A stretch of 18,399 nt of DNA from Promethearchaeota archaeon (GTDB lineage: Archaea > Asgardarchaeota > Lokiarchaeia > Sigyniarchaeales > SOKP01), in assembly GCA_048938445.1 (NCBI GenBank), contig JBHLME010000090.1, forward strand, positions 1 to 18,399, in the 5' to 3' direction. A program made the position numbers and the translations under genes. Shown piece after piece: positions 2,385 through 18,206 of the stretch (the first letter of the stretch is position 1; every line of letters begins with the position of its first letter). Below the pieces are notes generated by a model. It ran no database searches. It was not told the origin of the DNA and saw nothing but the letters and a program-made list of their open reading frames with translations.

Positions 2385-3734
2385 TTAAGTAACATAATTA
2401 TTATTGCCTTCAACTGTGGACCCACTTAGATTAGAATAATCGTCATCATTAGAAAGCATTGTATTCCCATCCACTACATTCCCATCACAACTACTACTGG
2501 CGATTCTTAAACCATATCCAGTACTAGAACTTTGATGATAAGTAATCATATTACCCAATATAAAATTATAATCAGCAGCGCTTAATTCTACAATGATACC
2601 ATAGATAAGACTTGATGAACTAGTAACCCCTCTAATAGTATTACCTGAAATAGTTGAGTTATACCCTCTAATGACAATTCCAGCAATTGTATTTTGATAT
2701 AGCATGTTATTTGCAATAGTGCAATATTCCCCATTAAAATAAATTCCCCTATAACATGTTGCTATGTAATTCCCTTCACAGACAACCTGACAACCACTGT
2801 CGATGTGTATACCTTGTCCACCACTACCAGTATCACAATCGACAATTGTATTATCGATGATGTAAACTGAATGGGCACTAGTAGTCACATAAACACCATA
2901 ATACATCTTACTGATATAACAGTTAGATACCCATACATCAGGTTGAGTTATGTAAATTGCAGTACCAAAACTATCTGAATCACCTAAAATACGGACATTT
3001 TCAACTCGTACTGAACTGATTGAGACTTGAATAGCGTATGTAATTCCTGTAAGATCACTAGCATCTATTGTTAAATCTTTTAAAATGCATGATGAAATAG
3101 TTCCATATATATAAAAAGCCATATTATTCCCACCACAATCCACCGTAATATCCTGGGAAACACCTTGTATGACATAGTTTCCACCACCATCTACAGTAAT
3201 TTGCGAGGTAAGTATAATATCTTCAGTAATTATAATCGTTCCATCTCCTGTCCCAATATCAGTTAATGCACTATTTATTTCTGATTGCGAAGAGCAATAA
3301 TATTTATCTGGATCATTAAGCACATTTACAATGATTTCATCTTGGGTGGTATTACCTGATGCTACATCAGTTGCAATCACGGTTATATTCCACCATCCAT
3401 TTGCTACAGAGCCAGTATTCCATTGAAATGGTAGTGTTGCTCCGATTAATGAGCCATTCCTAAGAATAGATATAGTATATTGACTTGAACCTGCTACTAA
3501 AGCTCTTATTTCAACAGTGCCCGAAACAGTGTCGCCTTGGTCAGGATCTAAAATACCAACGACAATACCACCCCCTCCAGGAACGCCATCTTCTCCATCT
3601 TCTCCAGGAGCACCAGGAAGACCAGGAATGGGAGGTTGTAAAAAGACAGAATATGTCCCTAAACCTAAACCACCCATTCCTATTATCATGGTTATGATAA
3701 TAAGAGCTGAAGATGCTGAACTTCTATTTGACAT
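2385..3734 (-). CDS. Membrane-anchored or secreted protein: N-terminal TM, short collagen-like segment, Ig-like domain, right-handed parallel beta-helix (NosD/pectin-lyase-like)
   Basis: Hydrophobic N-terminus; GLPGAPGEDGEDGVPG; 'PDQGDTVSGTVEIRA...FQWNTGSVANGWWNITVIATD' (Ig-like); repeated 'GIY...TIANN/ISGNTI/ILGNMI/VDGNTM' PbH1-type coils. Confidence 0.82.
   Translation of the reverse strand: MSNRSSASSALIIITMIIGMGGLGLGTYSVFLQPPIPGLPGAPGEDGEDGVPGGGGIVVGILDPDQGDTVSGTVEIRALVAGSSQYTISILRNGSLIGATLPFQWNTGSVANGWWNITVIATDVASGNTTQDEIIVNVLNDPDKYYCSSQSEINSALTDIGTGDGTIIITEDIILTSQITVDGGGNYVIQGVSQDITVDCGGNNMAFYIYGTISSCILKDLTIDASDLTGITYAIQVSISSVRVENVRILGDSDSFGTAIYITQPDVWVSNCYISKMYYGVYVTTSAHSVYIIDNTIVDCDTGSGGQGIHIDSGCQVVCEGNYIATCYRGIYFNGEYCTIANNMLYQNTIAGIVIRGYNSTISGNTIRGVTSSSSLIYGIIVELSAADYNFILGNMITYHQSSSTGYGLRIASSSCDGNVVDGNTMLSNDDDYSNLSGSTVEGNNNYVT
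3576..3623 (-). repeat. Collagen-like Gly-X-Y repeat (5 triplets) in a locally GC-rich coding patch
   Basis: Encodes GLP GAP GED GED GVP G; includes the 9-nt tandem ccatcttct x2. Confidence 0.7.
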
Positions 3735-3954: not shown

Positions 3955-5097
3955 TTAAAAAAAAGGATATCGATTTCGTCTCCTTTCTTGGCTTTCAAGA
4001 GTTTTTTTCTTCAATTCTTTATCAATAAAACCTTCAATGTGGCATAAGTACTCATATTCATCTCTCAAGCACAAAGTTATCGCGACACCTTTTTTATTCA
4101 TTCGGGAGGTTCTCCCTATTCGATGAACATAATTCTCGGGATACTTAGGCACGTCATAATTAAAAATATGACTTATATTATCAATATCAAGACCTCTCGC
4201 TGCAACATCAGTTGCTATGAGCATGTTAACCCTTTTCTTTTTAAAGTCTTTTAAAACTTTTTCTCGTTTGAATTGAGATAAATCTCCTGAAATAAGACCC
4301 ACTCTATATTCATTGTCTTTTGAATTCAATTTATTTGCTAACCATGATGCAGTCTTCTTGGTATTCGTAAAAACTAAAGAGAATTTAGGTTTTTCCCTCC
4401 TTAAAATTTTTAAGAATGAGGGATATTTTTGTTCATATCTATCAATTAAATAATAGAATTGATGAGTGTTTCTTACTGTCAATTCATCTTTACTTAAATT
4501 TAAAAACTTGAATTGATTTTTTGAATACTTTTTTACCAAATTTCTAATATCAGGATCGAGCGTAGCCGAAAATAGCATGAATTGATAATTAGTTTTAATT
4601 TGGTGTAAAATATATTTGACATCTGGAGCAAAACCCATATCCCATAGACGATCGGCTTCGTCTAGAACAACATATCTTATATTTGATAAATTTAATTCTC
4701 TTCTTTTATAAAGATCAATAATCCTTCCGGGAGTTCCTACAATTATATTAATCCCCTTTTTTAAATAACTTATCTGGTTATTAATAGAAACGCCCCCATA
4801 TATTGGTATGGACTTTACTCCATTTCCCATGCTCTCAATAACTTCTTGAACTTGTTTTGCAAGCTCTCTTGTTGGTACCAAAATAAGAGCTTCATTATTT
4901 TTAAATTGTATTTTTTCGATTATGGGAAGAACAAACGCTAGTGTCTTGCCAGTACCGGTTTTAGATTGAACCATCATATGGTTTCCTTTTAGAATGAAGG
5001 GAATTGCTTTTTCTTGTACCGGTGTTGGTGTTATGATATCTTGTTTTGATAACTCGTTTATATACTTATCTTTAATACCTAATTCTTTAAAATTCAA
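3955..5097 (-). CDS. DEAD-box ATP-dependent RNA helicase (core only)
   Basis: Q motif (F...PTPVQ), motif I SKTGTGKT, Ia PTRELA, GG, Ib TPGR, II DEAD, III SAT, V TDVAARGLD, VI HRIGRTSR. TTG start. Confidence 0.97.
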   Translation of the reverse strand: MNFKELGIKDKYINELSKQDIITPTPVQEKAIPFILKGNHMMVQSKTGTGKTLAFVLPIIEKIQFKNNEALILVPTRELAKQVQEVIESMGNGVKSIPIYGGVSINNQISYLKKGINIIVGTPGRIIDLYKRRELNLSNIRYVVLDEADRLWDMGFAPDVKYILHQIKTNYQFMLFSATLDPDIRNLVKKYSKNQFKFLNLSKDELTVRNTHQFYYLIDRYEQKYPSFLKILRREKPKFSLVFTNTKKTASWLANKLNSKDNEYRVGLISGDLSQFKREKVLKDFKKKRVNMLIATDVAARGLDIDNISHIFNYDVPKYPENYVHRIGRTSRMNKKGVAITLCLRDEYEYLCHIEGFIDKELKKKTLESQERRRNRYPFF

Positions 5098-5197
5098 ATA
5101 AAAAAACCTATAACTTCACTATTTTTTTCTCATTCTCAATTAAATAATGTTAATACTATTAGAAAAACTTTTCTAAAATTTCTCATTTCGATTTTTA

Positions 5198-7393
5198 CTA
5201 TTTAAATACGACTTGTTCAACTAGAAGATTTATTTCTACTAATTTTTTATTGATAAGCATGCGTACTTTATCTGCATTAATCTGTGGATTATTATTAACG
5301 ATATCTCGCACGGCATCACGATATTTTTTTCCCAATTTTGAAAGCATTAAGTGGGATTCATTAGACTCGTTAAATTGTGGTATTGGAAATGAAAATGGTC
5401 TTTTATGTATATGCCGTGAGCTTTTAATCAATTTAATGCTATTGGAGAGAATTGGAGCATTCAATATAGCAGATAAATAGAATGCTTCATCTTTAGAATC
5501 AGTAGAATAATAATAATTTTCTGATGGAATAATAATAGTTTTTTTAAAATTCTTAATAACTGCCGATTTTAGACTTGAACCAGAAGCATTATAAATTACA
5601 ATAAAATTATTGTTTTTATTCTGTTTAGTTAATTTATTCCAATAATTCATGTTTGAAAATAAAGTATTAATCGAACTGGTCTGTTTTTTATTTTTTTGAT
5701 AAATTTCATCTAATTCTGAATAAAATTTCATTGCTTTAGGATATTGATTTAAATAATCCGTATCAAAAAGAAATGCTTCATTAATAGGTAGAAACACGCG
5801 TTTATATTTTTTCAAACAAAAGGGAACTAAATCCTTATTTAAAAATGATTTAAACTTAAATTCTCGTTCAATTTCTCTATTTTGGAATTCAAATTTCCAC
5901 TTATTTTTTGCTCTAGATAATATATCGGGATCTGAAGATAATAAATATGATGAATCATCATTTTTATCCATTTTAAAAAATATTAAAGTACGTGGGACTA
6001 ATGTTGCTCCTTGGTAAAATTTTGACTTATAAGAACTATAAGAAATTTTATGTAAAAGTTCCAATTGATGAACTGGTATTATGAGTTTTGCTCCTTCTTT
6101 TTCAATCTTCAAGCTAGAATAATGAGTTTCCTCAATTACTGATAAATTTTCATTAAAGATTTTTGTTTTGATAGGATATTTCTCATTTGGTGTCTTATGG
6201 TCTTCAATTCCAATATATTCTGCTTTTAAGCAAATATTTGGAATATTAAATATATTTGTTGAGGGAAAATCCCAAATTTCAAGATTATCGAATATTGAAA
6301 AAGCTCTAAATTTATAACAGTGATCTCCATTCAAAACGCTTTTAGTTATAATTAAAAAGATTTTTCCACCGAATTTTAAAAACTTGGTAACAGCATAAAA
6401 AAAAACTGCCGCAAGCTCGATATGAGTAATATAATGACTCATCGGTTTAATTTTAAACCTTTCTGCTAAATTCCGGATATCCTCTTGATATTTCTTGCTA
6501 TTCAAATCTTTATATGTTATCCACGGGGGATTTCCTATTATTAAATCAAAATAATCATATAAATTCGTGAGATTATATCTCATTTGGGACTCATATCGCT
6601 CGGGAAATAATGAATCAATGATATATATATTTACATTAGGAATTTGATCTTCACTAAAATCAAAATGTTCTAAAAATACCAAGAATATATTTATCTTAGC
6701 AGTGTAAGTGGCAAGGGGGTTGACATCAAAACCATAGACGTTATTAATGGCATCAAGCTTTTCTTCATTGCTTTTCTCTTTATTGTTGAGAATAGATATA
6801 ATGATATTAATCAAGAAATTACCCGATCCGCAAGAAGGATCCAAAATTTTCTTACCAAATTCATAAAAATCATTAACCATCTTTTCGACGAGATTAGAAG
6901 GCGTGTAAAATTCTCCAATTTTATGGCGAATATCTGCAAAAAACAACTCTTGATAAAAATTAATGAACAAGTCTTCTTGCATGAAGGACTTATTTTCAAT
7001 TTCATCATAGATCATTGAAAATAGTTTTTTTGAAAAATCAATCCAATAAAAAGTATCAAACTCAAAGATATAAAAGGCTTCTAAATTATTTGACCTAAAA
7101 TCCCTGTAAGCCTCAGCAAAATCGATGTTTTGAATTAGACTCAAACGAGTTATCAATAAAGATTTCAAAACTAAAGAGAAATAGGTATGTTTGAGAAATA
7201 ACTCAGAATCAAGAACTCCACCATAAATCTCTTTATAAAGCTTTTTCCATTTAGTGAAAGTGATTTCATATTCTTTCTTTCGAGATGATTGCGCACTTTT
7301 TGTAAAGAAATCCATACTATTTTTATAGATCTCAGAACTCAATCCAAATGTTATAGAAATGTCTTTTTTTCCTACCTTTTTATACTCAACCAT
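5198..7393 (-). CDS. Amino (N6-adenine/N4-cytosine) DNA methyltransferase, gamma-class order, N-6 DNA methylase/Eco57I-like, with C-terminal putative target-recognition region
   Basis: Motif X GEFYTP, motif I ILDPSCGSGNF, 'YGFDVNP', motif IV IIGNPPW, in X-I-IV order, followed by about 350 aa of TRD-like sequence ('FYLSAILNAP'). Confidence 0.92.
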   Translation of the reverse strand: MVEYKKVGKKDISITFGLSSEIYKNSMDFFTKSAQSSRKKEYEITFTKWKKLYKEIYGGVLDSELFLKHTYFSLVLKSLLITRLSLIQNIDFAEAYRDFRSNNLEAFYIFEFDTFYWIDFSKKLFSMIYDEIENKSFMQEDLFINFYQELFFADIRHKIGEFYTPSNLVEKMVNDFYEFGKKILDPSCGSGNFLINIIISILNNKEKSNEEKLDAINNVYGFDVNPLATYTAKINIFLVFLEHFDFSEDQIPNVNIYIIDSLFPERYESQMRYNLTNLYDYFDLIIGNPPWITYKDLNSKKYQEDIRNLAERFKIKPMSHYITHIELAAVFFYAVTKFLKFGGKIFLIITKSVLNGDHCYKFRAFSIFDNLEIWDFPSTNIFNIPNICLKAEYIGIEDHKTPNEKYPIKTKIFNENLSVIEETHYSSLKIEKEGAKLIIPVHQLELLHKISYSSYKSKFYQGATLVPRTLIFFKMDKNDDSSYLLSSDPDILSRAKNKWKFEFQNREIEREFKFKSFLNKDLVPFCLKKYKRVFLPINEAFLFDTDYLNQYPKAMKFYSELDEIYQKNKKQTSSINTLFSNMNYWNKLTKQNKNNNFIVIYNASGSSLKSAVIKNFKKTIIIPSENYYYSTDSKDEAFYLSAILNAPILSNSIKLIKSSRHIHKRPFSFPIPQFNESNESHLMLSKLGKKYRDAVRDIVNNNPQINADKVRMLINKKLVEINLLVEQVVFK

Positions 7394-7493
7394 TATTTTT
7401 TCTCGATTCTGTTTAACTTTATAATTATTTGATTCAAATTAATTAAAATCCAAAGATGGATAAATAAAATAAAAAAAGAAAGATAATTCACCA

Positions 7494-8030
7494 TTATCGC
7501 ATGAAAGAAGGAAGCATCAAGCTAAAAATCTCAGAAATCTTTTTTAATTTTGATTTTGATTCTACTGTGGTTGCAATTAAAATTGAACGTTCAAGTTCTT
7601 TACGATCTAATGAACCCCCCGCATAAATACCCCTTTTAGTATTGAAAACTAGCATGTATCTCACATTGGGATTATTAACTACCTTGATACCTGGATTAGA
7701 TTTAATCTCATCATAATATTGCTGGTATTCTGGTGGCATTCCACCTCTATCATTAGTAATTATCAACACGGGTATTCCTTTTGATGCAATTCTTTTTAAT
7801 TCTGTTGAATAAAACTGATCTATTTTAGGTGATACTATATTAAGTTGCTCCTCTGTTTGTCCTATTAATTCAATTAACAAGTCGTTAAGGATGGTTTTTT
7901 TCCCTTCAAATACTCCTGAAGATTGAATATTAATTGCTCCTACAAGTGTTAAAATTCGATCTTCTAATTTTTGGACTTGTTCTTTTAACCTTCGGTTTTC
8001 TAATCTTAATTCGATAATGCGGTCAGACAT
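7494..8030 (-). CDS. N-terminal coiled coil + degenerate phospholipase D-like (PLDc_2/TrmB-middle-like) domain protein
   Basis: Heptad-like 'LRLENRRLKEQVQKLEDRI'; then 'LIGQTEEQLNIVSPKID', 'KGIPVLIITN', 'GIKVVNNPNVRYMLVFNTKRGIYAGGSLD', which follow the PLD-fold strand order but lack HxKxxxxD. Confidence 0.6.
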   Translation of the reverse strand: MSDRIIELRLENRRLKEQVQKLEDRILTLVGAINIQSSGVFEGKKTILNDLLIELIGQTEEQLNIVSPKIDQFYSTELKRIASKGIPVLIITNDRGGMPPEYQQYYDEIKSNPGIKVVNNPNVRYMLVFNTKRGIYAGGSLDRKELERSILIATTVESKSKLKKISEIFSLMLPSFMR

Positions 8031-8110
8031 TTATGTTTCTCTCACTTTTTTTCTTTTTCTTAAATATATTAATTATGTTATTTAACTATATATTTCTTGT
8101 ATTTAAAATA

Positions 8111-10612
8111 TTATAATACATTCCAAGGTGTTCCAAATAGTATAAATGACGATAGTGTGGCACTTTGGTTATTTTCAATATTTTTTTTGGATAGATCTTC
8201 CGATATTGCTTTTAATAATGCAATACCCTGATTATTTTTACTCAATATATAATTATAAAAACCGGTGATAATTTTTCTTGATTCATTGGTAAATACTGGA
8301 AAGTTTCTAGCAATAATTCCTTTTATATGACTATAATCAAAATGAGAAAATAGTTCACCAAGTATTTTTGTAGTATTGTTTATTTTTACTCCCTCGTCGT
8401 CAAAGATTTGTGCATTAAAAAATAGTAATGGATAAATATCATACGAATTTTGATTGATTGCTTTTAAAATTTCTTCAATTTTTATAATATTTTTATCATT
8501 AGTAATGAAATAACTATCTTTAGGGCTTTTTTTAGAATAATATATATTTCCGATAAAATGTATGATGTGAAGTTTATTTTGAGATAAATGAGATAAAATT
8601 TTATCGCGAGTACAAGTGCTCTCTGTTAAAATAGTCATAGAATTAACTTTTTCTGAATTTCTAAAGACATTTACAATGTGATTTAGTTCATTTTTACCTT
8701 CTATGAAGGGATAAATTAATTCTTTAACTTGTTTTTTTTCATTCCACTTGGTAGGGTAATTATCATTTATTGCTCCTATGATTAATACATCATGAACATC
8801 CTCTAAACTCATCATTCCTCTTTCGAAAGAGACCCCTCCAATATTTACTTCTCCAATTCGATAAGATGTTGAATATTGAAATAAGAAAAAATTATTATAA
8901 TGAATGAATTCAAAAGGAATCGTCATTGTATTTAATATTATAAAAACTTGAGGTATTTCCCCTTCTTCCTTAATTTCAAACTGAGTTATTATGTTTCTAA
9001 TTAATTTAGGAAGTGATAAGTAATAGATCCTCCCAAATTCATTTAAATCTAAATCATATTTCTTTGGTTTCGCAAATGAGAAGATGTCATCATAAATATC
9101 AGCTATTTGAGTGTCATTCCAATATTCATTTTGGATTTTTCCTTCAAATTCTGTACCTTCAGTTGATTTTATCCTAAAAGAAATTAATCCCTTTGAATTT
9201 ATATATAATATTAGCTTAGATATTTTAAAATTTGGATCAATAGTATTCATTACATCATCATCAAACGAATATATTTGAGGTTTTAATGATTGAGACTCTT
9301 CATGTAATTGAGGGAGATTAGATAATGATGCTTGAAGATCATTATCCAAAAAAGAGATGATTTTTGTAGCAAGATTGAGATCATTTTCTTCGAAAAGTGC
9401 TCTGTAAAATAGCATTCTCCAAAAATCGACTGGTTCTAATGAGTAATATAATGATTTAAATTGCCATAGGTAATTACAGGTATGGAAAAAATGAAAAATT
9501 TGTTCATTTGTTCTTGGAACTTTAAGATGCGTGTTTAACTTGTTCAATGATTGAAGTAAATATTTTTTATCCTTAATATTGACGAATTTCTTACTAGCTT
9601 CAATCCAAAGTTCAATTAAAATATTACTATATCCTAAATCCGATTTTAATATGAAAAGATCTTCTATGAAGTCATATATGCTAAAAGCTACTTCAAATTG
9701 GCTCCTGTTAATTAGAAAATCTATATATGTTCTGATATAGTTTATCGCATCAGGGAATGATTGAAATTCATTAATTTTAGAATACATGTATCTAATTACC
9801 ATTATGATCCAAGAATGCTCTCCAATATTATGCAAGTAGTGAATTAATTCTTCCAATTCAGTTAAAATTGTTGGGAATGTTCTCTCATTAATTGAAACTC
9901 TAGTTAATTTACCAAATTCATTTTTCAAACTGCTTGGAAGGCGATTTACTAAAAGTTTACTCATGAGCTTTACAAATTCTTGACCTTCCATCAAATCGAA
10001 TCTGATACTAATATTTTCCAAAAAGATATTAATAAATAAAGGGCGTTTATCAGGTTTTAATTCTGAGACAATTTTACTCAAGTTCTCCATGCTAAATATG
10101 AATAAATTAGTTGGAAGAACAGATTTTCTCAAAAACATTAGCAATATCTGCAATTCTATTAAATCTAAATAATTTCCTCTATTATACACATGATTACAAA
10201 AAGAATTGATAAATCTAGTAATTCCCGTCTGAGAGAGATTTTCCATTTTAATAAAAGACTTTAAGAGATTCGTGAAAAAAATGGAAAAATGGTAAAAATC
10301 GTCTAATTTTGATAAAAATGTAAAAAAGCGGTTATAGGCATCTAAATATTTAATAGGATCGAACTTGACTCCACTTTCATCCTTTTTTGTTAAAGAGTTT
10401 ATATAGATATGCCAACTATTAACAATGATCATTATTAATTGGTTCTTTTTTTGGACGTCCATCCATTCAGTTTTTTCAATTTCGAAATACAAATCATTAA
10501 ATAGTTTATCCGCCCAGCTGTGATTTGAAGTTAATAAAAGCTTTCGCCCTTGTATTATTTTTTTTTGAAAATTTTCAATAAAATTTTTTTTAATATCTAA
10601 TATTTCTGTCAT
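8111..10612 (-). CDS. Large alpha-helical protein with C-terminal CHAT (caspase-like) domain, predicted catalytically inactive
   Basis: About 450 aa of helical N-terminal sequence. The C-terminal part has CHAT landmarks: 'LNEFGRIYYLSLP', 'IPFEFIH', 'VLIIGA', 'ELNHIVNVF', 'CTRDKILSHL...HIIHFIGN', 'LLFFNAQ', 'SFILFGTPW'. ATG at 10612 is preferred over the track's TTG at 10621. Confidence 0.75.
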   Translation of the reverse strand: MTEILDIKKNFIENFQKKIIQGRKLLLTSNHSWADKLFNDLYFEIEKTEWMDVQKKNQLIMIIVNSWHIYINSLTKKDESGVKFDPIKYLDAYNRFFTFLSKLDDFYHFSIFFTNLLKSFIKMENLSQTGITRFINSFCNHVYNRGNYLDLIELQILLMFLRKSVLPTNLFIFSMENLSKIVSELKPDKRPLFINIFLENISIRFDLMEGQEFVKLMSKLLVNRLPSSLKNEFGKLTRVSINERTFPTILTELEELIHYLHNIGEHSWIIMVIRYMYSKINEFQSFPDAINYIRTYIDFLINRSQFEVAFSIYDFIEDLFILKSDLGYSNILIELWIEASKKFVNIKDKKYLLQSLNKLNTHLKVPRTNEQIFHFFHTCNYLWQFKSLYYSLEPVDFWRMLFYRALFEENDLNLATKIISFLDNDLQASLSNLPQLHEESQSLKPQIYSFDDDVMNTIDPNFKISKLILYINSKGLISFRIKSTEGTEFEGKIQNEYWNDTQIADIYDDIFSFAKPKKYDLDLNEFGRIYYLSLPKLIRNIITQFEIKEEGEIPQVFIILNTMTIPFEFIHYNNFFLFQYSTSYRIGEVNIGGVSFERGMMSLEDVHDVLIIGAINDNYPTKWNEKKQVKELIYPFIEGKNELNHIVNVFRNSEKVNSMTILTESTCTRDKILSHLSQNKLHIIHFIGNIYYSKKSPKDSYFITNDKNIIKIEEILKAINQNSYDIYPLLFFNAQIFDDEGVKINNTTKILGELFSHFDYSHIKGIIARNFPVFTNESRKIITGFYNYILSKNNQGIALLKAISEDLSKKNIENNQSATLSSFILFGTPWNVL

Positions 10613-10632
10613 GATAATCAACTTTTTCTATT

Positions 10633-11829
10633 TTATTCAACTCTATTTGGTTCAATATTAGTCATGCTAGGAGGTCTAGGCGTGGGATTATCGATCCACC
10701 CCTTTTGGAGCTGATTCTTTAGATATAAAATGGATGTTCCAATCCAACTCATGTGTTCCCTTCCCGATAAAGCAATCACGTTAATTTTTTCATTAATTTT
10801 ATCTGGAAAGAACTTATTCAGTTCATTTTTTAATCTATCTTTTAATCCAGGGATTAAACTTCCTCCTCCAGAGAGGATAATATTTGAAATGAGTTCTTCC
10901 CAATTTTCCCTATCCCATGATCTGATAATATTTGAAATAGCTTCTGCTAAACTAAAATAATCAATATGAATGAGTTTTGGATCAAATAAGGGTTCAGATA
11001 ACATGAATCTTTCAAAATTAATTTTTAAAGCGCTCCCATCTGGTAAGACAAACTCTTTATCATATTTATTAACACCTTCTTTTATTCTTTTTTTTTCCGC
11101 TTCCACGTTAAAAACACATAAAGAGGTTTCTTCTTTAATATCTTTGGCAATAAGATTATCAACATAATTTTTTTTACCACTTTCTTTTTGAGTAACACAC
11201 AAATTAAGTAAGTGCTTTGTTAATTCTTTCCCTGCTATAGGAAAGATATCTCGAGACATGATTTTATTGAATCCATGTAAGAAGGAATTAATGTATGTTC
11301 GAGATTCCCCCATGTTAACCACTATAGCACTGATTTTTTGGAGGGGTGCCATGATTGCTTGACTTTCAGATATGAATAGAAGTTTAGGAAAATTTAATTT
11401 TTCAAAAAAAATTTGTTGCAATTTTGATTTTTCTAGGTCTGTCATCAAGAAGGGGGCAATAATAATGATAGGTTGCATGTAGCGATATTCTTGTGCGATC
11501 TCTAACTTTTCATAGTAATGTTGAAAAAATTTCAATAAAATATTATAATTATTTTCTTTTTTAAATTCATGAATTTTTAATATATGTTTATAATCCAAAG
11601 CCTCTTGTCCAAATAAATTTTTTTCTACTCTTTCTTCACTTATAAAAATATCTTCTAAACCATCAATAATATCTGATGTAAATAAATAATCAGAGGCCTC
11701 AACATATACACTTGGAGTAATAATGACGGGATAATCATCTCCCGCAAAACCTAAGCGAAAGGTGTTGCTTCCAATATCTAATATCAATGGCCTTAAAGGA
11801 TCATTCTTTAACTCTTCTGCTGATGACAT
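10633..11829 (-). CDS. Divergent actin-family / actin-related protein (Asgard ARP-like)
   Basis: Phosphate-1 LILDIGSNTFRLGFAGDDYP, 'QIFFEKLNFPKL', phosphate-2 IVVNMGESRT, 'IAGKELTKHL', 'KDIKE', 'FVLPDG...ERF..SEPLFDP', adenosine NIILSGGGSLIPGLKDRLKNEL, 'SWIGTSIL'. Collinear with eukaryotic actin rather than MreB. Confidence 0.95.
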   Translation of the reverse strand: MSSAEELKNDPLRPLILDIGSNTFRLGFAGDDYPVIITPSVYVEASDYLFTSDIIDGLEDIFISEERVEKNLFGQEALDYKHILKIHEFKKENNYNILLKFFQHYYEKLEIAQEYRYMQPIIIIAPFLMTDLEKSKLQQIFFEKLNFPKLLFISESQAIMAPLQKISAIVVNMGESRTYINSFLHGFNKIMSRDIFPIAGKELTKHLLNLCVTQKESGKKNYVDNLIAKDIKEETSLCVFNVEAEKKRIKEGVNKYDKEFVLPDGSALKINFERFMLSEPLFDPKLIHIDYFSLAEAISNIIRSWDRENWEELISNIILSGGGSLIPGLKDRLKNELNKFFPDKINEKINVIALSGREHMSWIGTSILYLKNQLQKGWIDNPTPRPPSMTNIEPNRVE

Positions 11830-11895
11830 GATTAATATAAATTCTTAATTTAAATTCAAAAATAAATAATTATGGAGGTAATTCTCATTCAAAAT

Positions 11896-12822
11896 TCATA
11901 GACTGTGTATGTATTCATCCACATTTCTTTTAAATTGATATTCTTTTACCTGTAATTCAAGCATTCCCAGAACTTTTTTAAATTGATGTGATAGATTATC
12001 AATATCCACTTCAGCTATTTTCTCTACCTCACTTCGTTTAATAGCAAATTCATTTAAACTACTACGAATCTTCTCATAAGCATTATTAATGGATGAAACC
12101 AGATCTTCCGTATTTTTCTTGGTTACTTTTCTCATTTGTCTTAAAATGGATAATATGCTTGAAATTGATTCTTCCCACCTATTATATTTAGTATTATAAC
12201 CTTCAATTAATTCCTTGAAAAAATCCTCTAATTTTGGATAAATGCTTTCTTTTTTTACAAATGAAGGTTCTTTCTCAACAGAAGTACTTTCAACATCTTC
12301 TGGAGCTTGAGTCGTCTCAGAAGTGTCTGGTGCTCCAGGAATTCCAATCTTCTGAGGATGAGAGGGAGGAGCTTCATCTTTTGGCTTTTTTGGTAATGAA
12401 CTATCTATAAGATGTGTCCTTTGTTTTATTTCCTCTCTTGTTAACTTTCGCTCTGTTAAAGGTACATCTTCCATTAAAAAGTCTTCAACAATTTGTGTTT
12501 CCTTGCTATCGTAAACTAATTGTGGTTTGATTTTTTGTTCTTCCTTCACTTCACGACGATAAAATCCTTCACCAGAAGAAACATGGGATAATAATCCTTG
12601 TAAATCCACCTGAGTCTCTTTTGCACCTTCTAAAGCAGAATCCATTGCTTCTGCATCTTTCTTATGGGCTGCTAATGCAGCATCCAAAGATGCTATTGGC
12701 ATTGTTGCTGTAGTTGGTTGGGGAGTTGTATTAATTGACGGCTCCTCAAGTGATTCTTTTTCTTCTTTATCCTCTTTCTTTTTCTTCTCTTTCTTTTTCT
12801 TTTTTGCCATGAGAATTTCCAT
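11896..12822 (-). CDS. Hypothetical protein: poly-Lys N-terminus, disordered middle, C-terminal coiled coil
   Basis: MAKKKKKEKKKKEDKEEKE; P/E/T/S-rich centre; last ~110 aa are amphipathic helices. Start may be the ATG at 12810. Confidence 0.8.
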   Translation of the reverse strand: MEILMAKKKKKEKKKKEDKEEKESLEEPSINTTPQPTTATMPIASLDAALAAHKKDAEAMDSALEGAKETQVDLQGLLSHVSSGEGFYRREVKEEQKIKPQLVYDSKETQIVEDFLMEDVPLTERKLTREEIKQRTHLIDSSLPKKPKDEAPPSHPQKIGIPGAPDTSETTQAPEDVESTSVEKEPSFVKKESIYPKLEDFFKELIEGYNTKYNRWEESISSILSILRQMRKVTKKNTEDLVSSINNAYEKIRSSLNEFAIKRSEVEKIAEVDIDNLSHQFKKVLGMLELQVKEYQFKRNVDEYIHSL

Positions 12823-12966
12823 TAATTAATTATTTTCTTTATTATCATTATAACTTTTTAAAATCTAATATGTTAGTAACACGATGAATTTATAAATTTT
12901 TTTCAATATAAACGAGCTTTTCATGTGTTTATCATTTGTATTATTGAATATCATGTGATTATAGTT

Positions 12967-13374
12967 TTAGTCTAAAGGAACTATTTCTACTTTCAATGCT
13001 TCGCCTTCTGTTAAAAGCATTTCCTCTAGATCTTCTATATTTCTATCACTTGGTAGAGGTCCAATTACTTCCCACATTGCGGTCTTTTCTCTCTCTAAAG
13101 AGATTGATGTTCCATAAATAAGGGAAATATTTTTTTCTGCAAAAATATTAGCAATCTTAGCTAACGCACCGGGTATATCTTTCATGGTTATTCGAAACTT
13201 GACAGGATTAGCTTCCTGTGATATTCCAACAGGGCTTATCTTAATTTCTTTTGTCTCTGAATCTGCAATCATCATTAATTGAGAGTTGGTTGTTAGTCCT
13301 AAACTTTTTCGAATGATTTGAGGGATTACTATTCGACCTCTATTATCAATTGTTAAAATTCTTACTTCCTTCAT
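12967..13374 (-). CDS. AbrB/MazE/SpoVT-family DNA-binding domain fused to an ACT domain (ligand-responsive transcription regulator)
   Basis: 'LTIDNRGRIVIPQIIRKSLGL' is the AbrB swapped-hairpin signature; 'FRITMKDIPGALAKIANIFAEKNISL' is the ACT signature. Confidence 0.9.
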   Translation of the reverse strand: MKEVRILTIDNRGRIVIPQIIRKSLGLTTNSQLMMIADSETKEIKISPVGISQEANPVKFRITMKDIPGALAKIANIFAEKNISLIYGTSISLEREKTAMWEVIGPLPSDRNIEDLEEMLLTEGEALKVEIVPLD

Positions 13375-13550
13375 GAAAAACTTCTCTTGAATTTGTTTTA
13401 TTACATTTAATATTAGAACTGTAAAATATAAATATTACTGGAACAGATACAGAAATAGTATTTTTAATACATCTTTTTTCTAAAAAGATAGCCTAATTGG
13501 CTTTGAAACTATCTGAACCCTCAAATATCTTTTTTATTTACTTGTTTATA

Positions 13551-13886
13551 CTAATACTGAGATGGAGTTAATTCTACTTTAGCACTGGGTTCTAATATGA
13601 CGCATAACACGTGTTCCCTTCCTGCTTGGGTTATGATAATCTTACTTTCTTTTCCTTCAATCACTACCTGTTGCAGTGAACCAATTGAACACTCATCCAT
13701 AAATCTTTCAGCCATGGAATGAATTGCTGCTAACATTGGACTTATTAATGAATCATCAATATTTTGAGGAAATTTTGAAGATATTGGAACACCTTTTTTC
13801 GAAAGAATGAAGGATCCTTTAACATCTGAATTCGTTAGTCTAAGTTTATCTAATAAAATATTATAAGAATCTGAATTTTTTTCCAA
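13551..13886 (-). CDS. Roadblock/LC7 domain protein, short form lacking the C-terminal helix
   Basis: 'DVKGSFILSKKGVPISS', 'ISPMLAAIHSMAERFMDECSIGSLQQVVIEGKESKIIITQAGREHVLCVI'; the protein ends shortly after the last strand. TTG start. Confidence 0.9.
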   Translation of the reverse strand: MEKNSDSYNILLDKLRLTNSDVKGSFILSKKGVPISSKFPQNIDDSLISPMLAAIHSMAERFMDECSIGSLQQVVIEGKESKIIITQAGREHVLCVILEPSAKVELTPSQY

Positions 13887-14057
13887 GTTTTTACACGATT
13901 TTTCTTTTTATAGTTAATATGTATAGTTTCTTAGTATTTAAAGCGTATAGTCCTGATTAATTCTTAACAAAATTGGATAAAATTATTAATTAAAAAAGTA
14001 AAAATAAAAGAATAGGAACTTATAGATTTATAATTTTTTTTTATCGAATAAGCTAAT

Positions 14058-16265
14058 CTATGCTCTATGTGCCTTTAGTTTAACGGTTAAATCGCGAGCT
14101 CGTTTTGAATACCATACTAACAAGTCTCCAGCATTTTCTGGCTTGTAATACTCACCACCACACAATGCTGCTGCTTTATTCATCAGATTATCATCAGGAT
14201 TTCCTAATCCAATGACATATATTACAACATTAGGATTCTCAGAAAACCTGCGGATCTCGTTGAAGAAGGCATCTCCATCGGTGGGGACACCATCAGTTAG
14301 CAAGACTATCATTGTTGGTTGATCTTTTGACATCTTATCAAACTCATTTAACACTTGATGTGCTGCTACCATTGCTTGTCCCATGTTAGTAGCTTGACCA
14401 TAAGCATTTCCAATTCGATCAACAATGACCCTAGCAGCATCTTCAAGAACTCCTTTCTTACCCGATGCGGAGTCCATGTAATAACTACCTCCAAAAGGTA
14501 ATACTTGTGCTTCATCAGCAAATCTTATTACACTTACTTTTTCTCCAAAACCCCTTCCTACTTTTTCACTCAAGAATAAAACAGCTGCAAAAGCCGCAGA
14601 AATTCTACGAGGTATGTTGACCCCATCTTTAAAATGAACCAAAAATTCTTGAATTTCTCTTGATTCCATTGCTGCTTTAATTCCTTCAATGGCAGGAGCT
14701 ATATTCGTGACTAATACATCTCGTGCCATCATTGAACGACTTATATCGATTATAAGAATGGCATTGAAAGGGATTAATCCTACAGGTGCCAATGATAAAG
14801 TCGTATTAGAGGTTATTTGAGCTAATATATCACCAGTCAAATCAGGAACACATTGGATAATCGAGCATGCTACATTGGCTTGAGCCCATCTTAACTTAAT
14901 ACCTTTAAATATGATATAATTTGATAACCAGATTTTTAAAGGTTCTACATTTGTTCGAACCATGCTGATTATTTGCCACATGTTCTCTCCAGAAATGGGC
15001 GCGATTCCCAATGAAACGCTTTGTAAGGGTATTATTTGCCGTTGATTTTTAGTTACCGTTACTTCAAAACTGCCTATACCTGATGCTTCAAGTATTTCAC
15101 TATCGATATAAATTGCATTGTCGGGCACGTTTTCGACTATCTGAACTTTACCCGCGCCTACAGCTCCTGTAAGTTCATCTGAAAATGCAATTACATCATT
15201 GGATTGGATTGAAAGGGTGTGTTGGATTCTTGGACTTACTTGACAGAATCCCATTAAATTTGGCTGTGAATGCACCTCTAGCATTATCTGAGATGTTTTA
15301 TGAATTGGTGGTTCGGTTGAATATACAACTATCTGATTTGATTGTATGTTTGTATCTTCTTTCGTATCCAAGCTCATCCTAATCTGTGAAGGATTTATGG
15401 TTATTACATCAATTCTAGCTGAACCAACGGATCTTGAAACTGGATCCTCCCAAGCTATCAACATTCCTTGACCTAATCCCAATGATTGTACAAGATTTGG
15501 ACTGAGTTGTACTCTTCCTCCTTGTAATGTTGAATCAACTACAACGGAGAGAATTATACCATTTTTTTGAGATTGTAGCATGTTAATGTCTATGGCATTA
15601 GCATACGTTGCTGCGGGCGCTGCTCGTTGAGCAGGTGGAGGGCCATATGCTCCAGGAGTTGGTTGGGATGGTGTATATTGTGATGGTGGTTGAGGCATGG
15701 GACTAAGTTGAGATGGAGGAGTATATTGTGGTTGTGGTGTTGGTTGTGGCGGTGGAGGAGAATATTGTGTTTGAGGTGTTGGTTGTGGTGGAGGAGGAAA
15801 ATATTGAGGTTGAGGTGTTGGTTGTGGTGGAGGTGGTGAAATTTGAGGTTCCGGAATTGAGGTGGGCATTGTTTTTGCAGAAGGGGCAGCTAAACGCGCT
15901 CCTGGTTGCACAGGTGCGGGAATGGGAATAGGTTCCTTGACAGGTTTAGTCTGAGGTAGTTTTGATGTAGGTTTCTTTTTTTTACCTTTACTAGGCGTCT
16001 TTACTTTACCACTTGATGGTCTAATCGTTAATTCTACCCCATCAAATTTTACTTTATCGAGAATATCTTTTGAAAATCGTCCCGCAAAATCTAGTATTTG
16101 ATCTGAAATGTTTATTTTTGCTGAAGTAACCATGAGATTGTCATCATTCACTACATCAACCATTCCACCGTTTTGTACGCCTAATTTTTTTGCATTTTCT
16201 TCACAAATTACTAAAGTACCTGAACTTTTTTCATCTATATCTACAAAAATTTTAATTTCTGTCAT
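14058..16265 (-). CDS. Multidomain protein: CDC48-N-like double-psi barrels, Pro/Gln-rich linker, CDC48 domain-2-like region, C-terminal vWA domain
   Basis: vWA MIDAS 'ILIIDISRSM', 'ATNMGQAM', 'IVLLTDGVP', 'IYVIGLG', 'AALCGGEYY'. Three units resemble CDC48-N: 'AKKLGVQNGGMVDV', 'VQSLGLGQGMLIAW', 'QHTLSIQSNDVIAF'. No Walker A. ATG at 16265 is preferred over TTG at 16274. The vWA call is firm; the CDC48-N call is moderate. Confidence 0.8.
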   Translation of the reverse strand: MTEIKIFVDIDEKSSGTLVICEENAKKLGVQNGGMVDVVNDDNLMVTSAKINISDQILDFAGRFSKDILDKVKFDGVELTIRPSSGKVKTPSKGKKKKPTSKLPQTKPVKEPIPIPAPVQPGARLAAPSAKTMPTSIPEPQISPPPPQPTPQPQYFPPPPQPTPQTQYSPPPPQPTPQPQYTPPSQLSPMPQPPSQYTPSQPTPGAYGPPPAQRAAPAATYANAIDINMLQSQKNGIILSVVVDSTLQGGRVQLSPNLVQSLGLGQGMLIAWEDPVSRSVGSARIDVITINPSQIRMSLDTKEDTNIQSNQIVVYSTEPPIHKTSQIMLEVHSQPNLMGFCQVSPRIQHTLSIQSNDVIAFSDELTGAVGAGKVQIVENVPDNAIYIDSEILEASGIGSFEVTVTKNQRQIIPLQSVSLGIAPISGENMWQIISMVRTNVEPLKIWLSNYIIFKGIKLRWAQANVACSIIQCVPDLTGDILAQITSNTTLSLAPVGLIPFNAILIIDISRSMMARDVLVTNIAPAIEGIKAAMESREIQEFLVHFKDGVNIPRRISAAFAAVLFLSEKVGRGFGEKVSVIRFADEAQVLPFGGSYYMDSASGKKGVLEDAARVIVDRIGNAYGQATNMGQAMVAAHQVLNEFDKMSKDQPTMIVLLTDGVPTDGDAFFNEIRRFSENPNVVIYVIGLGNPDDNLMNKAAALCGGEYYKPENAGDLLVWYSKRARDLTVKLKAHRA
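15708..15848 (-). repeat. Imperfect 39-bp (13-aa) coding tandem repeat, 3 full copies plus a partial one
   Basis: PQISPPPPQPTPQ (15810-15848), PQYFPPPPQPTPQ (15771-15809), TQYSPPPPQPTPQ (15732-15770), PQYTPPSQ (15708-15731). Confidence 0.88.
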
Positions 16266-16334
16266 TATTATCAAATACTTTTTTCTTGATTAGAAATTAC
16301 CATGAATTTTAAAATATAAATTTCTGAGTATGGA

Positions 16335-16724
16335 TTAAGGAACGGGATATCTTTTTCCAATCTCACCAGCATAATAACGGAATACAGTTACTACCTTTCC
16401 CAAATCTTCAAGCTTCCTACATGCTCCCATCAAGAAAAATCGTCCTGCTGAGCTTAAAATAATGAAAGCATCACTTCCCCTTAATACTACTTCAAGCATC
16501 TGATGATAACCTAATGATGAGACTGCCTCTGAAGCACTCTGTAGCACTACAGCGCTCATGCTTGAAAATAAGTCTGCATTGACTTCATAAGTAGGAATAG
16601 AAGAAAAGGCTAATTTTAGACCTTCACGGGTTATTAACGCAAGAGCTTCCAATTCAGTGTGTTCAGTAATATTTCCTAAAAAATTTGATAAGCTCAATGC
16701 TTCTTCGGGTGTTAAATCGCTCAT
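16335..16724 (-). CDS. Roadblock/LC7 (MglB/LAMTOR2-like) domain protein, full-length form
   Basis: 'LEALALITREGLKLAFS', 'LFSSMSAVVLQSASEAVSSLGYHQMLEVVLRGSDAFIILSSAG', and C-terminal helix 'DLGKVVTVFRYYAGEIGKRY'. Confidence 0.88.
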   Translation of the reverse strand: MSDLTPEEALSLSNFLGNITEHTELEALALITREGLKLAFSSIPTYEVNADLFSSMSAVVLQSASEAVSSLGYHQMLEVVLRGSDAFIILSSAGRFFLMGACRKLEDLGKVVTVFRYYAGEIGKRYPVP

Positions 16725-16940
16725 TTTTCTCAGATTTTATACTTAAATCTATTTTTATTTTTTGTATTAATTTTATTATAGAAACTTAATAATATAAGTT
16801 TAATTTTATGATGTTGCTCAATTTTAATAAATGTATACTTTAATGTGCTTTAAAATTATTTCATTTTAACTAGTAAATAAAAAATAATAAGTAAAAACAG
16901 TATATGATACCGTGAGAATATAAAAAAGAAATTGAGTATA

Positions 16941-17756
16941 TTACCCAAGTTGCTTCTTGATCTGGTTTTGGAGGATGTCTTTTTTCGATTTTGGCTCATA
17001 TTCTCCTCCAGCGCGACGTAAAAACTCAATTGCCAGAATTTTTCCGTTTTCAGATAGTATTCGTGGAGAATAATCTTCGGCAAAGAATACTCCTTCAGGT
17101 ATAGATCCTACTTTCTCAATGACCTTTTCAACTTGTTTTTTACCTAGAAAATTTTGGACTTTTTCTACGATTGAATAAGCATGATTCCCAATAATGATTA
17201 ATTCACGTTCATAGCCAGGTGGTATTTGTATTTCTTCGAGTTTTTGCATTATTTGTTCAAAATTTACCTGTTGCTCCTCTTGCATGAATTGACTCATAGA
17301 TCCTGCACCAGTATATAATGGTCCGGCATTATCTTTAACACGATCTCGACTACCTGCGATATTCATGCCTTCTGCGGGTTTAGGAGGTTCAAAAATTGCT
17401 TTTTGACGTAGTGGATTGACTGCTGCACCTGCGCCTGGATCTTCTTTTATTTCTTTAGCGATACCGGCCTCTGTTTTACCTCCCATTATTCTTATTAATT
17501 CTGAATCCTCGTCTCCTTCATCAACCGAGACAGATCCATAATGCAGTCCTACTTGACCTCGAATATCTTGGCTTCGTTTAGCACCAACAAACTTAGATCT
17601 TACATTACTTTGACTTCCAAGCCATAAAAAGATTTTTCTTATATCATCAGCTACGATAACATACACTTCTTCTGATTTCATGATGTCCTTTATCGGGCCA
17701 TCTGCTGTCAGTTCCGTTGTAGTTCCGTCGGGATTTACCTTGAAAATTTGGGGCAT
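16941..17756 (-). CDS. Single gelsolin/villin-like domain + linker + unknown C-terminal domain (1DGelX-like architecture)
   Basis: 'IFKV...MKSEEVYVIV...KIFLWLGSQSNVRSKFVGAKRSQDI...VDEGDEDSELIRIMG' matches the gelsolin repeat (W-x-G-x-x-S, EGxE). A second globular region begins near 'FEQIMQKLEEIQIPPGYERELIIIGN'. Confidence 0.88.
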   Translation of the reverse strand: MPQIFKVNPDGTTTELTADGPIKDIMKSEEVYVIVADDIRKIFLWLGSQSNVRSKFVGAKRSQDIRGQVGLHYGSVSVDEGDEDSELIRIMGGKTEAGIAKEIKEDPGAGAAVNPLRQKAIFEPPKPAEGMNIAGSRDRVKDNAGPLYTGAGSMSQFMQEEQQVNFEQIMQKLEEIQIPPGYERELIIIGNHAYSIVEKVQNFLGKKQVEKVIEKVGSIPEGVFFAEDYSPRILSENGKILAIEFLRRAGGEYEPKSKKDILQNQIKKQLG

Positions 17757-17894: not shown

Positions 17895-18206
17895 TTAACA
17901 TTCCTCGGGTCGTAGAATGTTTTCAATAGTGTTCATGAATAATATGAGCTGATTTTTGACTCTCGCGTGTTTTTCGGGATTTTTTATCTCATTTGGTAAT
18001 TCATTTACTGCCCAACCATACATCACTTTGGGTAATGCTTGGCTAACATCGACTTTAATATTCCCTTTTTGAAATGCTTCCATGGCATCTTCAATGACTC
18101 TAGTGAAATTTTGTTGATTTTCCAAGATTTTTTCTATTGATTCTTCATCATTTATAGACGTAAGTAATATTTGTAGATTTTCTTCCAGTTTTTTTAATAT
18201 GCTCAT
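17895..18206 (-). CDS. Hypothetical small alpha-helical protein
   Basis: 103-aa ORF with ATG start that fills the intergenic gap, is co-oriented with its neighbours and has amphipathic helices. Confidence 0.72.
   Translation of the reverse strand: MSILKKLEENLQILLTSINDEESIEKILENQQNFTRVIEDAMEAFQKGNIKVDVSQALPKVMYGWAVNELPNEIKNPEKHARVKNQLILFMNTIENILRPEEC

Follow-up and report, generated by a model that had tools for sequence, protein, structure and literature searches.

Gene content of the locus

The sequence considered here is contig JBHLME010000090.1 of a Promethearchaeota archaeon (Lokiarchaeia, order Sigyniarchaeales; GenBank assembly GCA_048938445.1), which was analysed as a whole over its 18,399 bp and is called the window below; the genome to which it belongs measures 4.6 Mb, is divided into 256 contigs and has a G+C content of about 30%. 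Between positions 7494 and 17756 the window carries nine genes, among them a divergent actin paralogue (an actin-related protein, ARP), a gelsolin-domain gene and two Roadblock genes, which a preliminary description, made from the sequence alone, had grouped into one actin-centred assembly. We labelled these genes A to I, from low to high coordinates, as follows.

A, 7494-8030 (-): 178 amino acids; long N-terminal helix followed by a PLD/Nuc-fold domain without HKD motif
C-terminal tail LPSFMR of A, 7497-7514 (-): invariant
B, 8111-10621 (-): 836 amino acids; TPR-like solenoid and CHAT caspase-fold domain
CHAT domain of B (residues 467-836), 8114-9223 (-): without catalytic dyad
Solenoid of B (residues 1-450), 9272-10621 (-): TPR-like
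C, 10633-11829 (-): 398 amino acids; divergent actin paralogue ("ARP")
D, 11896-12822 (-): 308 amino acids; polybasic N-terminus, Pro/Glu-rich middle and C-terminal helical bundle
E, 12967-13374 (-): 135 amino acids; AbrB/MazE-type DNA-binding domain and ACT domain
F, 13551-13886 (-): 111 amino acids; Roadblock/LC7
G, 14058-16274 (-): 738 amino acids; small N-terminal barrel-like domains, proline-rich linker and C-terminal vWA domain
Proline-rich linker of G, about 15633-15932 (-)
H, 16335-16724 (-): 129 amino acids; Roadblock/LC7, the middle gene of I-H-G
I, 16941-17756 (-): 271 amino acids; N-terminal gelsolin domain, GPLYTG linker motif and conserved C-terminal domain

The list of open reading frames (ORFs) bears out that the nine genes are co-oriented, all being read from the minus strand, and eight of the nine domain labels previously given to them could be upheld; the ninth gene, E, is neither a coiled-coil protein nor a pseudo-enzyme and becomes an AbrB-ACT regulator. 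The gaps of 144-216 bp described earlier do separate D from E, E from F, F from G and H from I, but the other four are shorter (11 bp between B and C, 60 bp between G and H, 66 bp between C and D and 80 bp between A and B). T-runs and TATA-like boxes give a weak hint of transcription units only, since the genome has about 30% G+C, and scans of the window returned no Rfam or tRNA match.

Conservation of the D-C-B-A operon

The four-gene operon formed by the ARP and its neighbours, D-C-B-A, is the most interesting part of this neighbourhood. We compared the window with 20 loci fetched from other genomes of its own family (f1 below) and with eight loci fetched from two further families of the same order (f2 and f3). 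Across all 20 f1 loci, D-C-B-A keeps its order and orientation up to the limits of the contigs, except that one genome (G018) lacks A; the longer order E-D-C-B-A is kept to the same extent. Among the 30 best B loci, a set that includes the window and six genomes of the first set, C is adjacent to B in 29 and A in 28. Outside f1, D-C-B-A is complete, in the same order and orientation, in six of the eight loci, and a seventh is a contig of 3.2 kb that carries part of C, the whole of B and part of A.

The eighth locus (L093, on G170:C113, from the f2 genus g24) has, at 5035-11224, a B-like gene cut by the contig end and then a homologue of D; the next gene encodes a protein of 834 amino acids without Pfam match and not similar to C or A, and no actin-fold gene was seen there.

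The sequences themselves have diverged considerably between families. Identity between the window and the f2/f3 loci is 23-25% for B, 27-33% for C and 29-43% for A, and D can be aligned only in its C-terminal domain, at 32-35%. From f1 to f2, A is better conserved (40-43%) than C (27-30%) or B (23-25%). Judged from these alignments, the pseudo-enzymes of the operon are evidently under constraint, A being the best conserved of them and ending in an invariant tail. According to ORF coordinates, C and B overlap by 4 bp or sit 1-3 bp apart in the f2/f3 loci, and no T-run follows either C or B in the window. D-C-B-A is the sole block common to f1, f2 and f3, whose flanks differ from one family to another; as the four genes have survived every rearrangement together, we read them as an operon, and a tight one.

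A full-length B was found in 117 of 134 f1 genomes, in the single f3 genome and in 7 of 14 f2 genomes, and in no other family among the 400 Asgard genomes searched; three genomes of f5 gave weak matches to the CHAT domain only. B and C share their distribution, for in the f2 genera without B, matches to C do not rise above the level of Lokiactin. Most genomes with a B locus have one match each, and identity falls in more distant kin.

The gene order thus recurs in related genomes within f1 and the clustering is not accidental, as the preliminary description had supposed. Part of it has a simpler origin, however: the conserved order in f1 continues past I into a conserved upstream gene (cluster 10, which sits where nnr sits in other I-H-G loci) and three further clusters (11, 13 and 14), and since it runs beyond the nine genes, some of the f1 clustering is inherited order. 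It could be argued from this extended synteny with unrelated clusters that the overlapping pair C-B is the only true unit and that everything else has stayed in place in slowly rearranging genomes. This is a serious alternative, but we regard it as quite improbable, because A and D have remained attached to C-B across three families, at identities of 23-43% and with both flanks exchanged, and because A, which is not part of the pair, is the best-conserved member and keeps its invariant tail. The presence of unrelated housekeeping genes in the conserved f1 order is nevertheless a caution for similar claims about gene neighbourhoods.

Proteins of the operon

C belongs to the actin family (Pfam Actin PF00022, 167.3 bits for a cut-off of 27) and matches actins of the PDB at about 1e-33 to 1e-38 over residues 9-383; the best 60 of its 101 PDB matches (all at or below 1e-30) are conventional or archaeal actins and none of them is an Arp. 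In public records its relatives either are called "hypothetical" or carry automatic actin names, namely "actin-related protein", "actin beta/gamma 1" and "centractin". Of the 24 other f1 genomes searched, 20 have an orthologue (49-81% identity); the remaining four are 68-94% complete. When C is aligned to the 375-residue actin of PDB 1dej, D11, G13, S14 and the adenine-pocket loop are retained. Q137, H161 and the phosphate-2 loop D154-x-G-D-G, which we take to be the hydrolysis residues of actin (actin numbering), are the site of five substitutions (Q137 to E, D154 to N, D157 to E, G158 to S and H161 to Y), so that this alignment does not describe a catalytically competent actin. The hydrolysis positions drift among orthologues, and the second phosphate loop of the f2 sequences reads G-Y-Y. 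A degenerate nucleotide site, together with the non-actin scaffold genes of the operon, suggests that C would be a structural subunit and not a filament former, with nucleotide probably still bound and hydrolysis predicted to be impossible.

B scores marginally with the Pfam family CHAT (PF12770, 24.7 bits for a cut-off of 24), and its AlphaFold2 model (pLDDT 85.9, pTM 0.75) has about 22 helices in its solenoid (residues 1-450) and, after this, an alpha/beta domain (467-836). Foldseek matched the whole model to Csx29/TPR-CHAT (8.8e-11), to DdvA and to separase (about 5e-7), with further matches to gingipain and MALT1, and CHAT clusters matched residues 446-836 in the Atlas structure search; the three approaches agree on a CHAT fold. 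A sequence profile of B searched against the PDB found no CHAT or separase match, only designed helical repeats and a formin at E-values above 0.02, which we took as noise. The expected catalytic His is replaced by N in 16 of 17 orthologues and by I in the other, and at the position of the catalytic Cys we found Q, K, R, V or H; none of the 17 sequences has a Cys up to four residues away. No His or Cys is invariant anywhere in B. Because the Cys/His dyad is absent in all 17 orthologues, B cannot be a protease. By analogy with Csx29 and separase, it would be a platform that grips its partners as they grip theirs.

A falls below the Pfam cut-off for PLDc_2 (20.4 bits against 27), and its profile finds NucT in the PDB at 1.3e-3. 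The AlphaFold2 model (pLDDT 82.7) has a helix at residues 2-29 and then an alpha/beta domain, which Foldseek assigns to the PLD fold with NucT (5.4e-8), Zucchini (2.5e-6) and Nuc (4.7e-6), all with a probability of 1.00; non-catalytic relatives were matched as well, namely the FAM83 pseudo-PLD domain (3.4e-6) and TrmBL2 (1.3e-5, the effector domain of TrmB/TrmBL2). The motif HxK(x)4D is absent, the corresponding strand reading V-[KR]-Y-L-L-V-F-N, and no His is invariant in 16 orthologues. By contrast, the last six residues (L173-R178, LPSFMR) are invariant in 16 of 16 orthologues from three families. A would be a coiled-coil dimer of PLD-fold domains, which may dock to its partners through this tail peptide.

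No Pfam family scored above its cut-off in D. An alignment of 17 orthologues shows a K-rich start that is kept, a variable middle rich in Pro and Glu, and a helical domain at the C-terminus that is conserved over about 115 residues (approximately 190-305), with F201, Y213, W216, N237, F259, K262, L288 and Q291 invariant. This C-terminal part matches four-helix-bundle proteins in the Atlas structure search, with TM-scores of 0.70-0.76 by query; the Atlas feature search gave no usable match for the same domain. The helical bundle would join D to the complex, and the polybasic N-terminus would tether it to an anionic surface, either membrane or nucleic acid.

Counting the CHAT dyad, the HKD motif of the PLD fold and the hydrolysis residues of actin, all of which are lost, interaction modules do outnumber enzymes in this neighbourhood, as had been noticed before. 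D, C, B and A would form one stable hetero-oligomeric scaffold, in which the folds have been kept and the ancestral chemistry lost.

The I-H-G unit, and genes E and F

Gelsolin similarity in I is limited to residues 1 to about 100: Pfam has no gelsolin match at 0.01, while the two-domain gelsolin of Lokiarchaeota (2DGel, PDB 7whg) is matched at 4.8e-6 by the single sequence and, when 15 orthologues are combined in a profile, at 4.5e-11, which identifies a gelsolin domain. In the otherwise variable linker, GPLYTG (residues 145-150) is invariant. Residues 165-250 form a conserved C-terminal domain with invariant P179, G181, R184, E185 and a PEG-F-A stretch, for which no PDB sequence match was found.

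H is a Roadblock protein (Pfam Robl_LC7 PF03259, 26.5 bits for a cut-off of 23) whose orthologues (70-98% identity in f1, 53-57% in f2) are without exception placed between I and G; in one locus the gene is inverted. G contains a vWA domain (38.5 bits for a cut-off of 23.8) with an intact MIDAS motif, DISRS, of the DxSxS form, which 16 of 17 orthologues have. Its proline stretch reaches 41 Pro per 100 residues, with at least 19 Pro per 100 in 15 of 17 orthologues, and a local G+C peak of 0.42 (15001-16000) falls on this coding stretch; the C-terminal 500 residues are nearly invariant in f1 and f2. The label "CDC48N", previously given to the N-terminus of G, is unconfirmed: its sole support is a sub-threshold match to the double-psi-barrel family Molydop_binding (16.4 against 26.8 bits), which scores 32.8 bits in a divergent f2 homologue, and PDB sequence searches with this N-terminus found low-complexity proline-rich and vWA matches only.

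I and G orthologues are adjacent in f2 genomes, and I, H and G occur together in six of eight further loci (f2 genera g14, g17, g20 and g21; f1 genera g8 and g11), five of which have nnr before the trio; the two remaining loci (f4 and f3) have G-like genes only. I-H-G is therefore a separate unit, conserved throughout the order. The trio is probably actin-regulatory, and would work on Lokiactin filaments or fit them to their partners.

E matches the Pfam families ACT (27.8 bits) and MazE_antitoxin (24.0 bits), the archaeal NCBIfam model PRK08577 (2.4e-26) and the AbrB domain TIGR01439. It adjoins D in f1 and f3, but not in f2, and is likely a ligand-sensing regulator of local transcription.

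F is an extra Roadblock protein (Robl_LC7, 54.1 bits for a cut-off of 23). It was not found between G and E in any of the 20 f1 loci of other genomes, and its best match in 40 related genomes does not exceed 45% identity. Only the same-genus genome G002 has a copy at the same place, with 45% identity where the neighbouring genes have 74-98%; G003, of the same genus, has none, nor does G005. F evolves fast and is an insertion, at genus level, between G and E.

Are the two units one machine?

The preliminary description proposed a single actin-centred machine for cytoskeletal work or membrane remodelling, with each of the nine genes supplying a subunit or a regulator, and within f1 the gene order lends some weight to this. 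I-H-G stands directly beside E in 10 of the 20 f1 loci and is displaced by 3.8-7 kb or partial in another three; it falls outside the fetched stretch in four, and the last three loci end too early, which leaves 17 informative. The joined order I-H-G/E-D-C-B-A is also found on two contigs of the same genus as the window (G002 and G003). Actin biology is also suggested by three features of the proteins, the gelsolin domain, the proline-rich tract and the actin fold. Nevertheless, synteny comparison splits the genes into two units. In a closed f2 genome I-H-G lies at 1.315-1.319 Mb and the ARP operon at 0.996-1.000 Mb, 316 kb apart; the units are not adjacent in f3, and even within f1 three genomes (G012, G015 and G020) have them at a distance of 90 kb or on other contigs. 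F, moreover, is genus-specific, and housekeeping genes stand within the same conserved order. A single nine-subunit assembly thus appears unlikely. The comparison with dynactin or a polarity module made at the same time finds no support either: the Pfam scan of the window shows neither a small GTPase nor a second actin-fold gene, and no GTPase family matched any of the 17 window ORFs scanned, which leaves the Roadblock proteins there without a partner GTPase of the Roadblock/MglB type.

Flanking genes

Beyond A, on the same strand, the window contains two genes for nucleic-acid enzymes.

N6-adenine DNA methyltransferase, 5198-7393 (-): 731 amino acids; Pfam N6_Mtase/Eco57I, with a PADLOC type IIG methyltransferase region
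DEAD-box RNA helicase, 3955-5097 (-): 380 amino acids; Pfam DEAD/Helicase_C, CshA-like by NCBIfam

The methyltransferase follows A in most f1 loci, with 46-75% identity, and this downstream flank is syntenic in f1 only, both enzymes being absent from the f2 and f3 loci. Residues 139-266 of the methyltransferase match positions 350-496 of the 1100 in the type IIG model, that is, the methyltransferase part only, and no nuclease domain is evident in its 731 amino acids; a conserved orphan methyltransferase is unusual for an enzyme of the restriction type. The genes below 3955 are not conserved beside the block in other genera, and one of them, a 449-amino-acid ORF at 2385-3734 (-), has weak matches to parallel beta-helix (NosD-like) proteins. 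On the other side, upstream of I, lies a gene that we call J (17895-18206, minus strand, 103 amino acids), with no family and no counterpart in other loci, where this side is taken up by the conserved gene upstream of I (nnr in the further I-H-G loci); the contig ends 193 bp beyond it.

In f2 the operon is flanked by genes for a PHP protein and a Hef helicase-nuclease upstream and by a conserved gene of unknown function downstream. All four longer f2 loci (L087-L090) have the PHP-domain protein and the Hef-type helicase-ERCC4-HhH nuclease upstream of D on the same strand, and one of the four has, inserted between these genes and D, genes for a response regulator and an ArsR-type regulator.

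These flanks bear on two other explanations. Defence systems often contain TPR-CHAT proteases, PLD nucleases, type IIG-like methyltransferases and helicases, and the neighbourhood could be seen as a defence or mobile island in which methyltransferase, PLD nuclease, CHAT protease and helicase act against viruses; the flanking methyltransferase and helicase do match PADLOC models. This seems hardly credible for the genes considered here, as none of the nine genes has a PADLOC match at 0.01 apart from D, whose matches are weak coiled-coil ones (JetC and ZorA) only. The helicase is a DEAD-box RNA helicase of the CshA/DbpA type. No orthologue retains the catalytic residues of the protease or of PLD, and the block keeps a fixed position in 117 of 134 f1 genomes, mostly as a single match per genome. 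On account of the dead catalytic sites, the lack of PADLOC matches and the steady presence at a fixed position, we reject a defence island as very unlikely.

The second explanation is that D-C-B-A acts on nucleic acid, in chromatin, repair or segregation, and not on the cytoskeleton. Nuclear ARPs work in eukaryotic chromatin remodellers, and actins of the ParM type work with DNA adaptors. The polybasic N-terminus of D is conserved, A has the fold of the nucleases Nuc, NucT and Zucchini and also matches the archaeal chromatin protein TrmBL2, and enzymes of nucleic acids flank the operon in both f1 (methyltransferase, DEAD helicase) and f2 (Hef, PHP), though they are different ones. A structural cluster that joins Asgard proteins, possibly C among them, with ARPs of the INO80 complex is mentioned, without gene context in the part of the text available, by a 2026 preprint (PMC13734099). 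Against this, A has lost the nuclease residues, a polybasic stretch binds acidic lipids equally well, the flanks differ between families and may be coincidental, and in f1 a gelsolin gene lies near the operon. On balance a role on nucleic acid is a serious alternative, though we find it rather doubtful.

Interpretation of the neighbourhood

We interpret this stretch as an f1-specific juxtaposition of two independently conserved Lokiarchaeal units, D-C-B-A and I-H-G, together with a regulator (E) and a recent insertion (F), in which D-C-B-A would be one pseudo-enzyme scaffold complex; we give this reading a probability of about 0.55. What the data show directly is the gene content, the folds, the lost catalytic residues and the conserved gene orders; binding among D, C, B and A, docking by the tail, tethering by the polybasic end and every connection with actin filaments are inferred. 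A more ambitious version, which we put forward tentatively and consider doubtful as a whole, is that D-C-B-A represents the first multi-subunit ARP complex of Archaea: the non-hydrolysing ARP would be clamped by a dead, separase-like TPR-CHAT protein and a dead PLD dimer and held by a polybasic tether, it would nucleate, cap or anchor Lokiactin or link it to DNA or membrane, and in f1 it would be wired to I-H-G.

Several observations weigh against the interpretation of D-C-B-A as one scaffold complex. The operon is damaged in some genomes: B is broken by stop codons in G016 (L054, 2173-4682) and shortened in G010 (L049, 6870-7856), where about ten unrelated ORFs on the opposite strand follow the break and the remainder lies on another contig; A is missing in G018; and L073 (G234:C35, from a genome that is 62% complete) is alone among the 30 best B loci in having neither C nor D within 1.5 kb upstream. 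Some lineages can therefore do without the unit. Functionally unlinked genes also belong to the conserved order (nnr next to I, and next to A the methyltransferase and the DEAD helicase), so order alone overstates functional coupling. The CHAT catalytic positions in B were mapped by motif position and model strands and not by residue-level structural alignment, although the absence of any invariant His or Cys does not depend on this mapping. Finally, the data fit a cytoskeletal and a nucleic-acid-linked role of D-C-B-A alike.

With the scaffold reading of D-C-B-A, one ARP lineage is given fixed partners, namely a separase-like scaffold and a PLD-fold protein, both dead, together with a polybasic adaptor, and a second fixed trio is centred on a gelsolin-domain protein. 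The question of what Asgard ARPs do is thereby made experimentally concrete, as it comes down to four proteins, one tail peptide and one operon in cultured Lokiarchaeia of a sister family.

Comparison with known systems

B shares its layout, an N-terminal solenoid followed by a C-terminal CHAT domain, with the TPR-CHAT proteins Csx29 (of the type III-E Craspase), DdvA (an anti-sigma factor) and separase (with securin), all of which act while bound to a partner, and may be likened to them in this respect. Unlike them, B has no CRISPR, sigma-factor or cohesin context, and its TM-scores with TPR-CHAT structures are low (0.23-0.28) because the orientation of the domains differs.

The single PLD-fold domain of A, of about 130 residues, lacks the HKD residues just as FAM83 DUF1669 and TrmB/TrmBL2 do, and TrmB has, like A, a long helix before this domain. 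A differs from TrmB/TrmBL2 by the absence of a DNA-binding winged helix and from FAM83 by the absence of a kinase-docking context, and its invariant LPSFMR tail is specific to its own family when compared with FAM83, TrmB, NucT, Nuc and Zucchini.

Asgard archaea have Lokiactin filaments, profilins and gelsolins, and two-domain gelsolins (2DGel) were reportedly described from them by Akil et al. in 2020. Among these proteins, those of PDB 7whg and 7c2h (from Loki- and Thorarchaeota) have gelsolin domains to which I is similar in its N-terminal domain. Unlike 2DGel, I has one detectable gelsolin domain, carries a C-terminal domain and a GPLYTG motif without match, and is fixed beside Roadblock and vWA genes.

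As regards gene neighbourhoods, the available part of Liu et al. (10.1101/2020.10.19.343400) places most genes for Asgard eukaryotic signature proteins outside conserved neighbourhoods; the operons that it names are ESCRT and a LAMTOR1-like Roadblock with a Rab-like GTPase and DENN, and neither of our two units is named there. The LAMTOR1-Rab-DENN operon in that part of the article resembles I-H-G in having a gene of the Roadblock superfamily in a conserved neighbourhood, with the difference that no GTPase or DENN gene is present here. For the actin fold, the accessible text of Rodrigues-Oliveira et al. (PMC9834061) reports that a cultured Lokiarchaeon has, besides Lokiactin, three more actin homologues, which are less transcribed and group with ARPs, and it gives no partners or functions for these three. 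Our literature search, which lay outside subscription journals and bioRxiv supplements, found no Asgard ARP paired with a CHAT or PLD protein and no description of a gelsolin, Roadblock and vWA grouping.

Complexes built on ARPs are found in eukaryotes: Arp2/3, dynactin with Arp1 and Arp11, and the nuclear modules of Arp4, Arp5 and Arp8. In each, a divergent actin-fold protein is combined with non-actin scaffold subunits, and D-C-B-A is alike in this. The operon differs from them in having only one actin-fold gene, and its other genes show no resemblance to ARPC, dynactin or HSA-domain subunits. If the more ambitious version of our interpretation is correct, D-C-B-A would be an Asgard-specific analogue of Arp2/3, dynactin or the nuclear ARP modules, which would have arisen independently of the eukaryotic ones.

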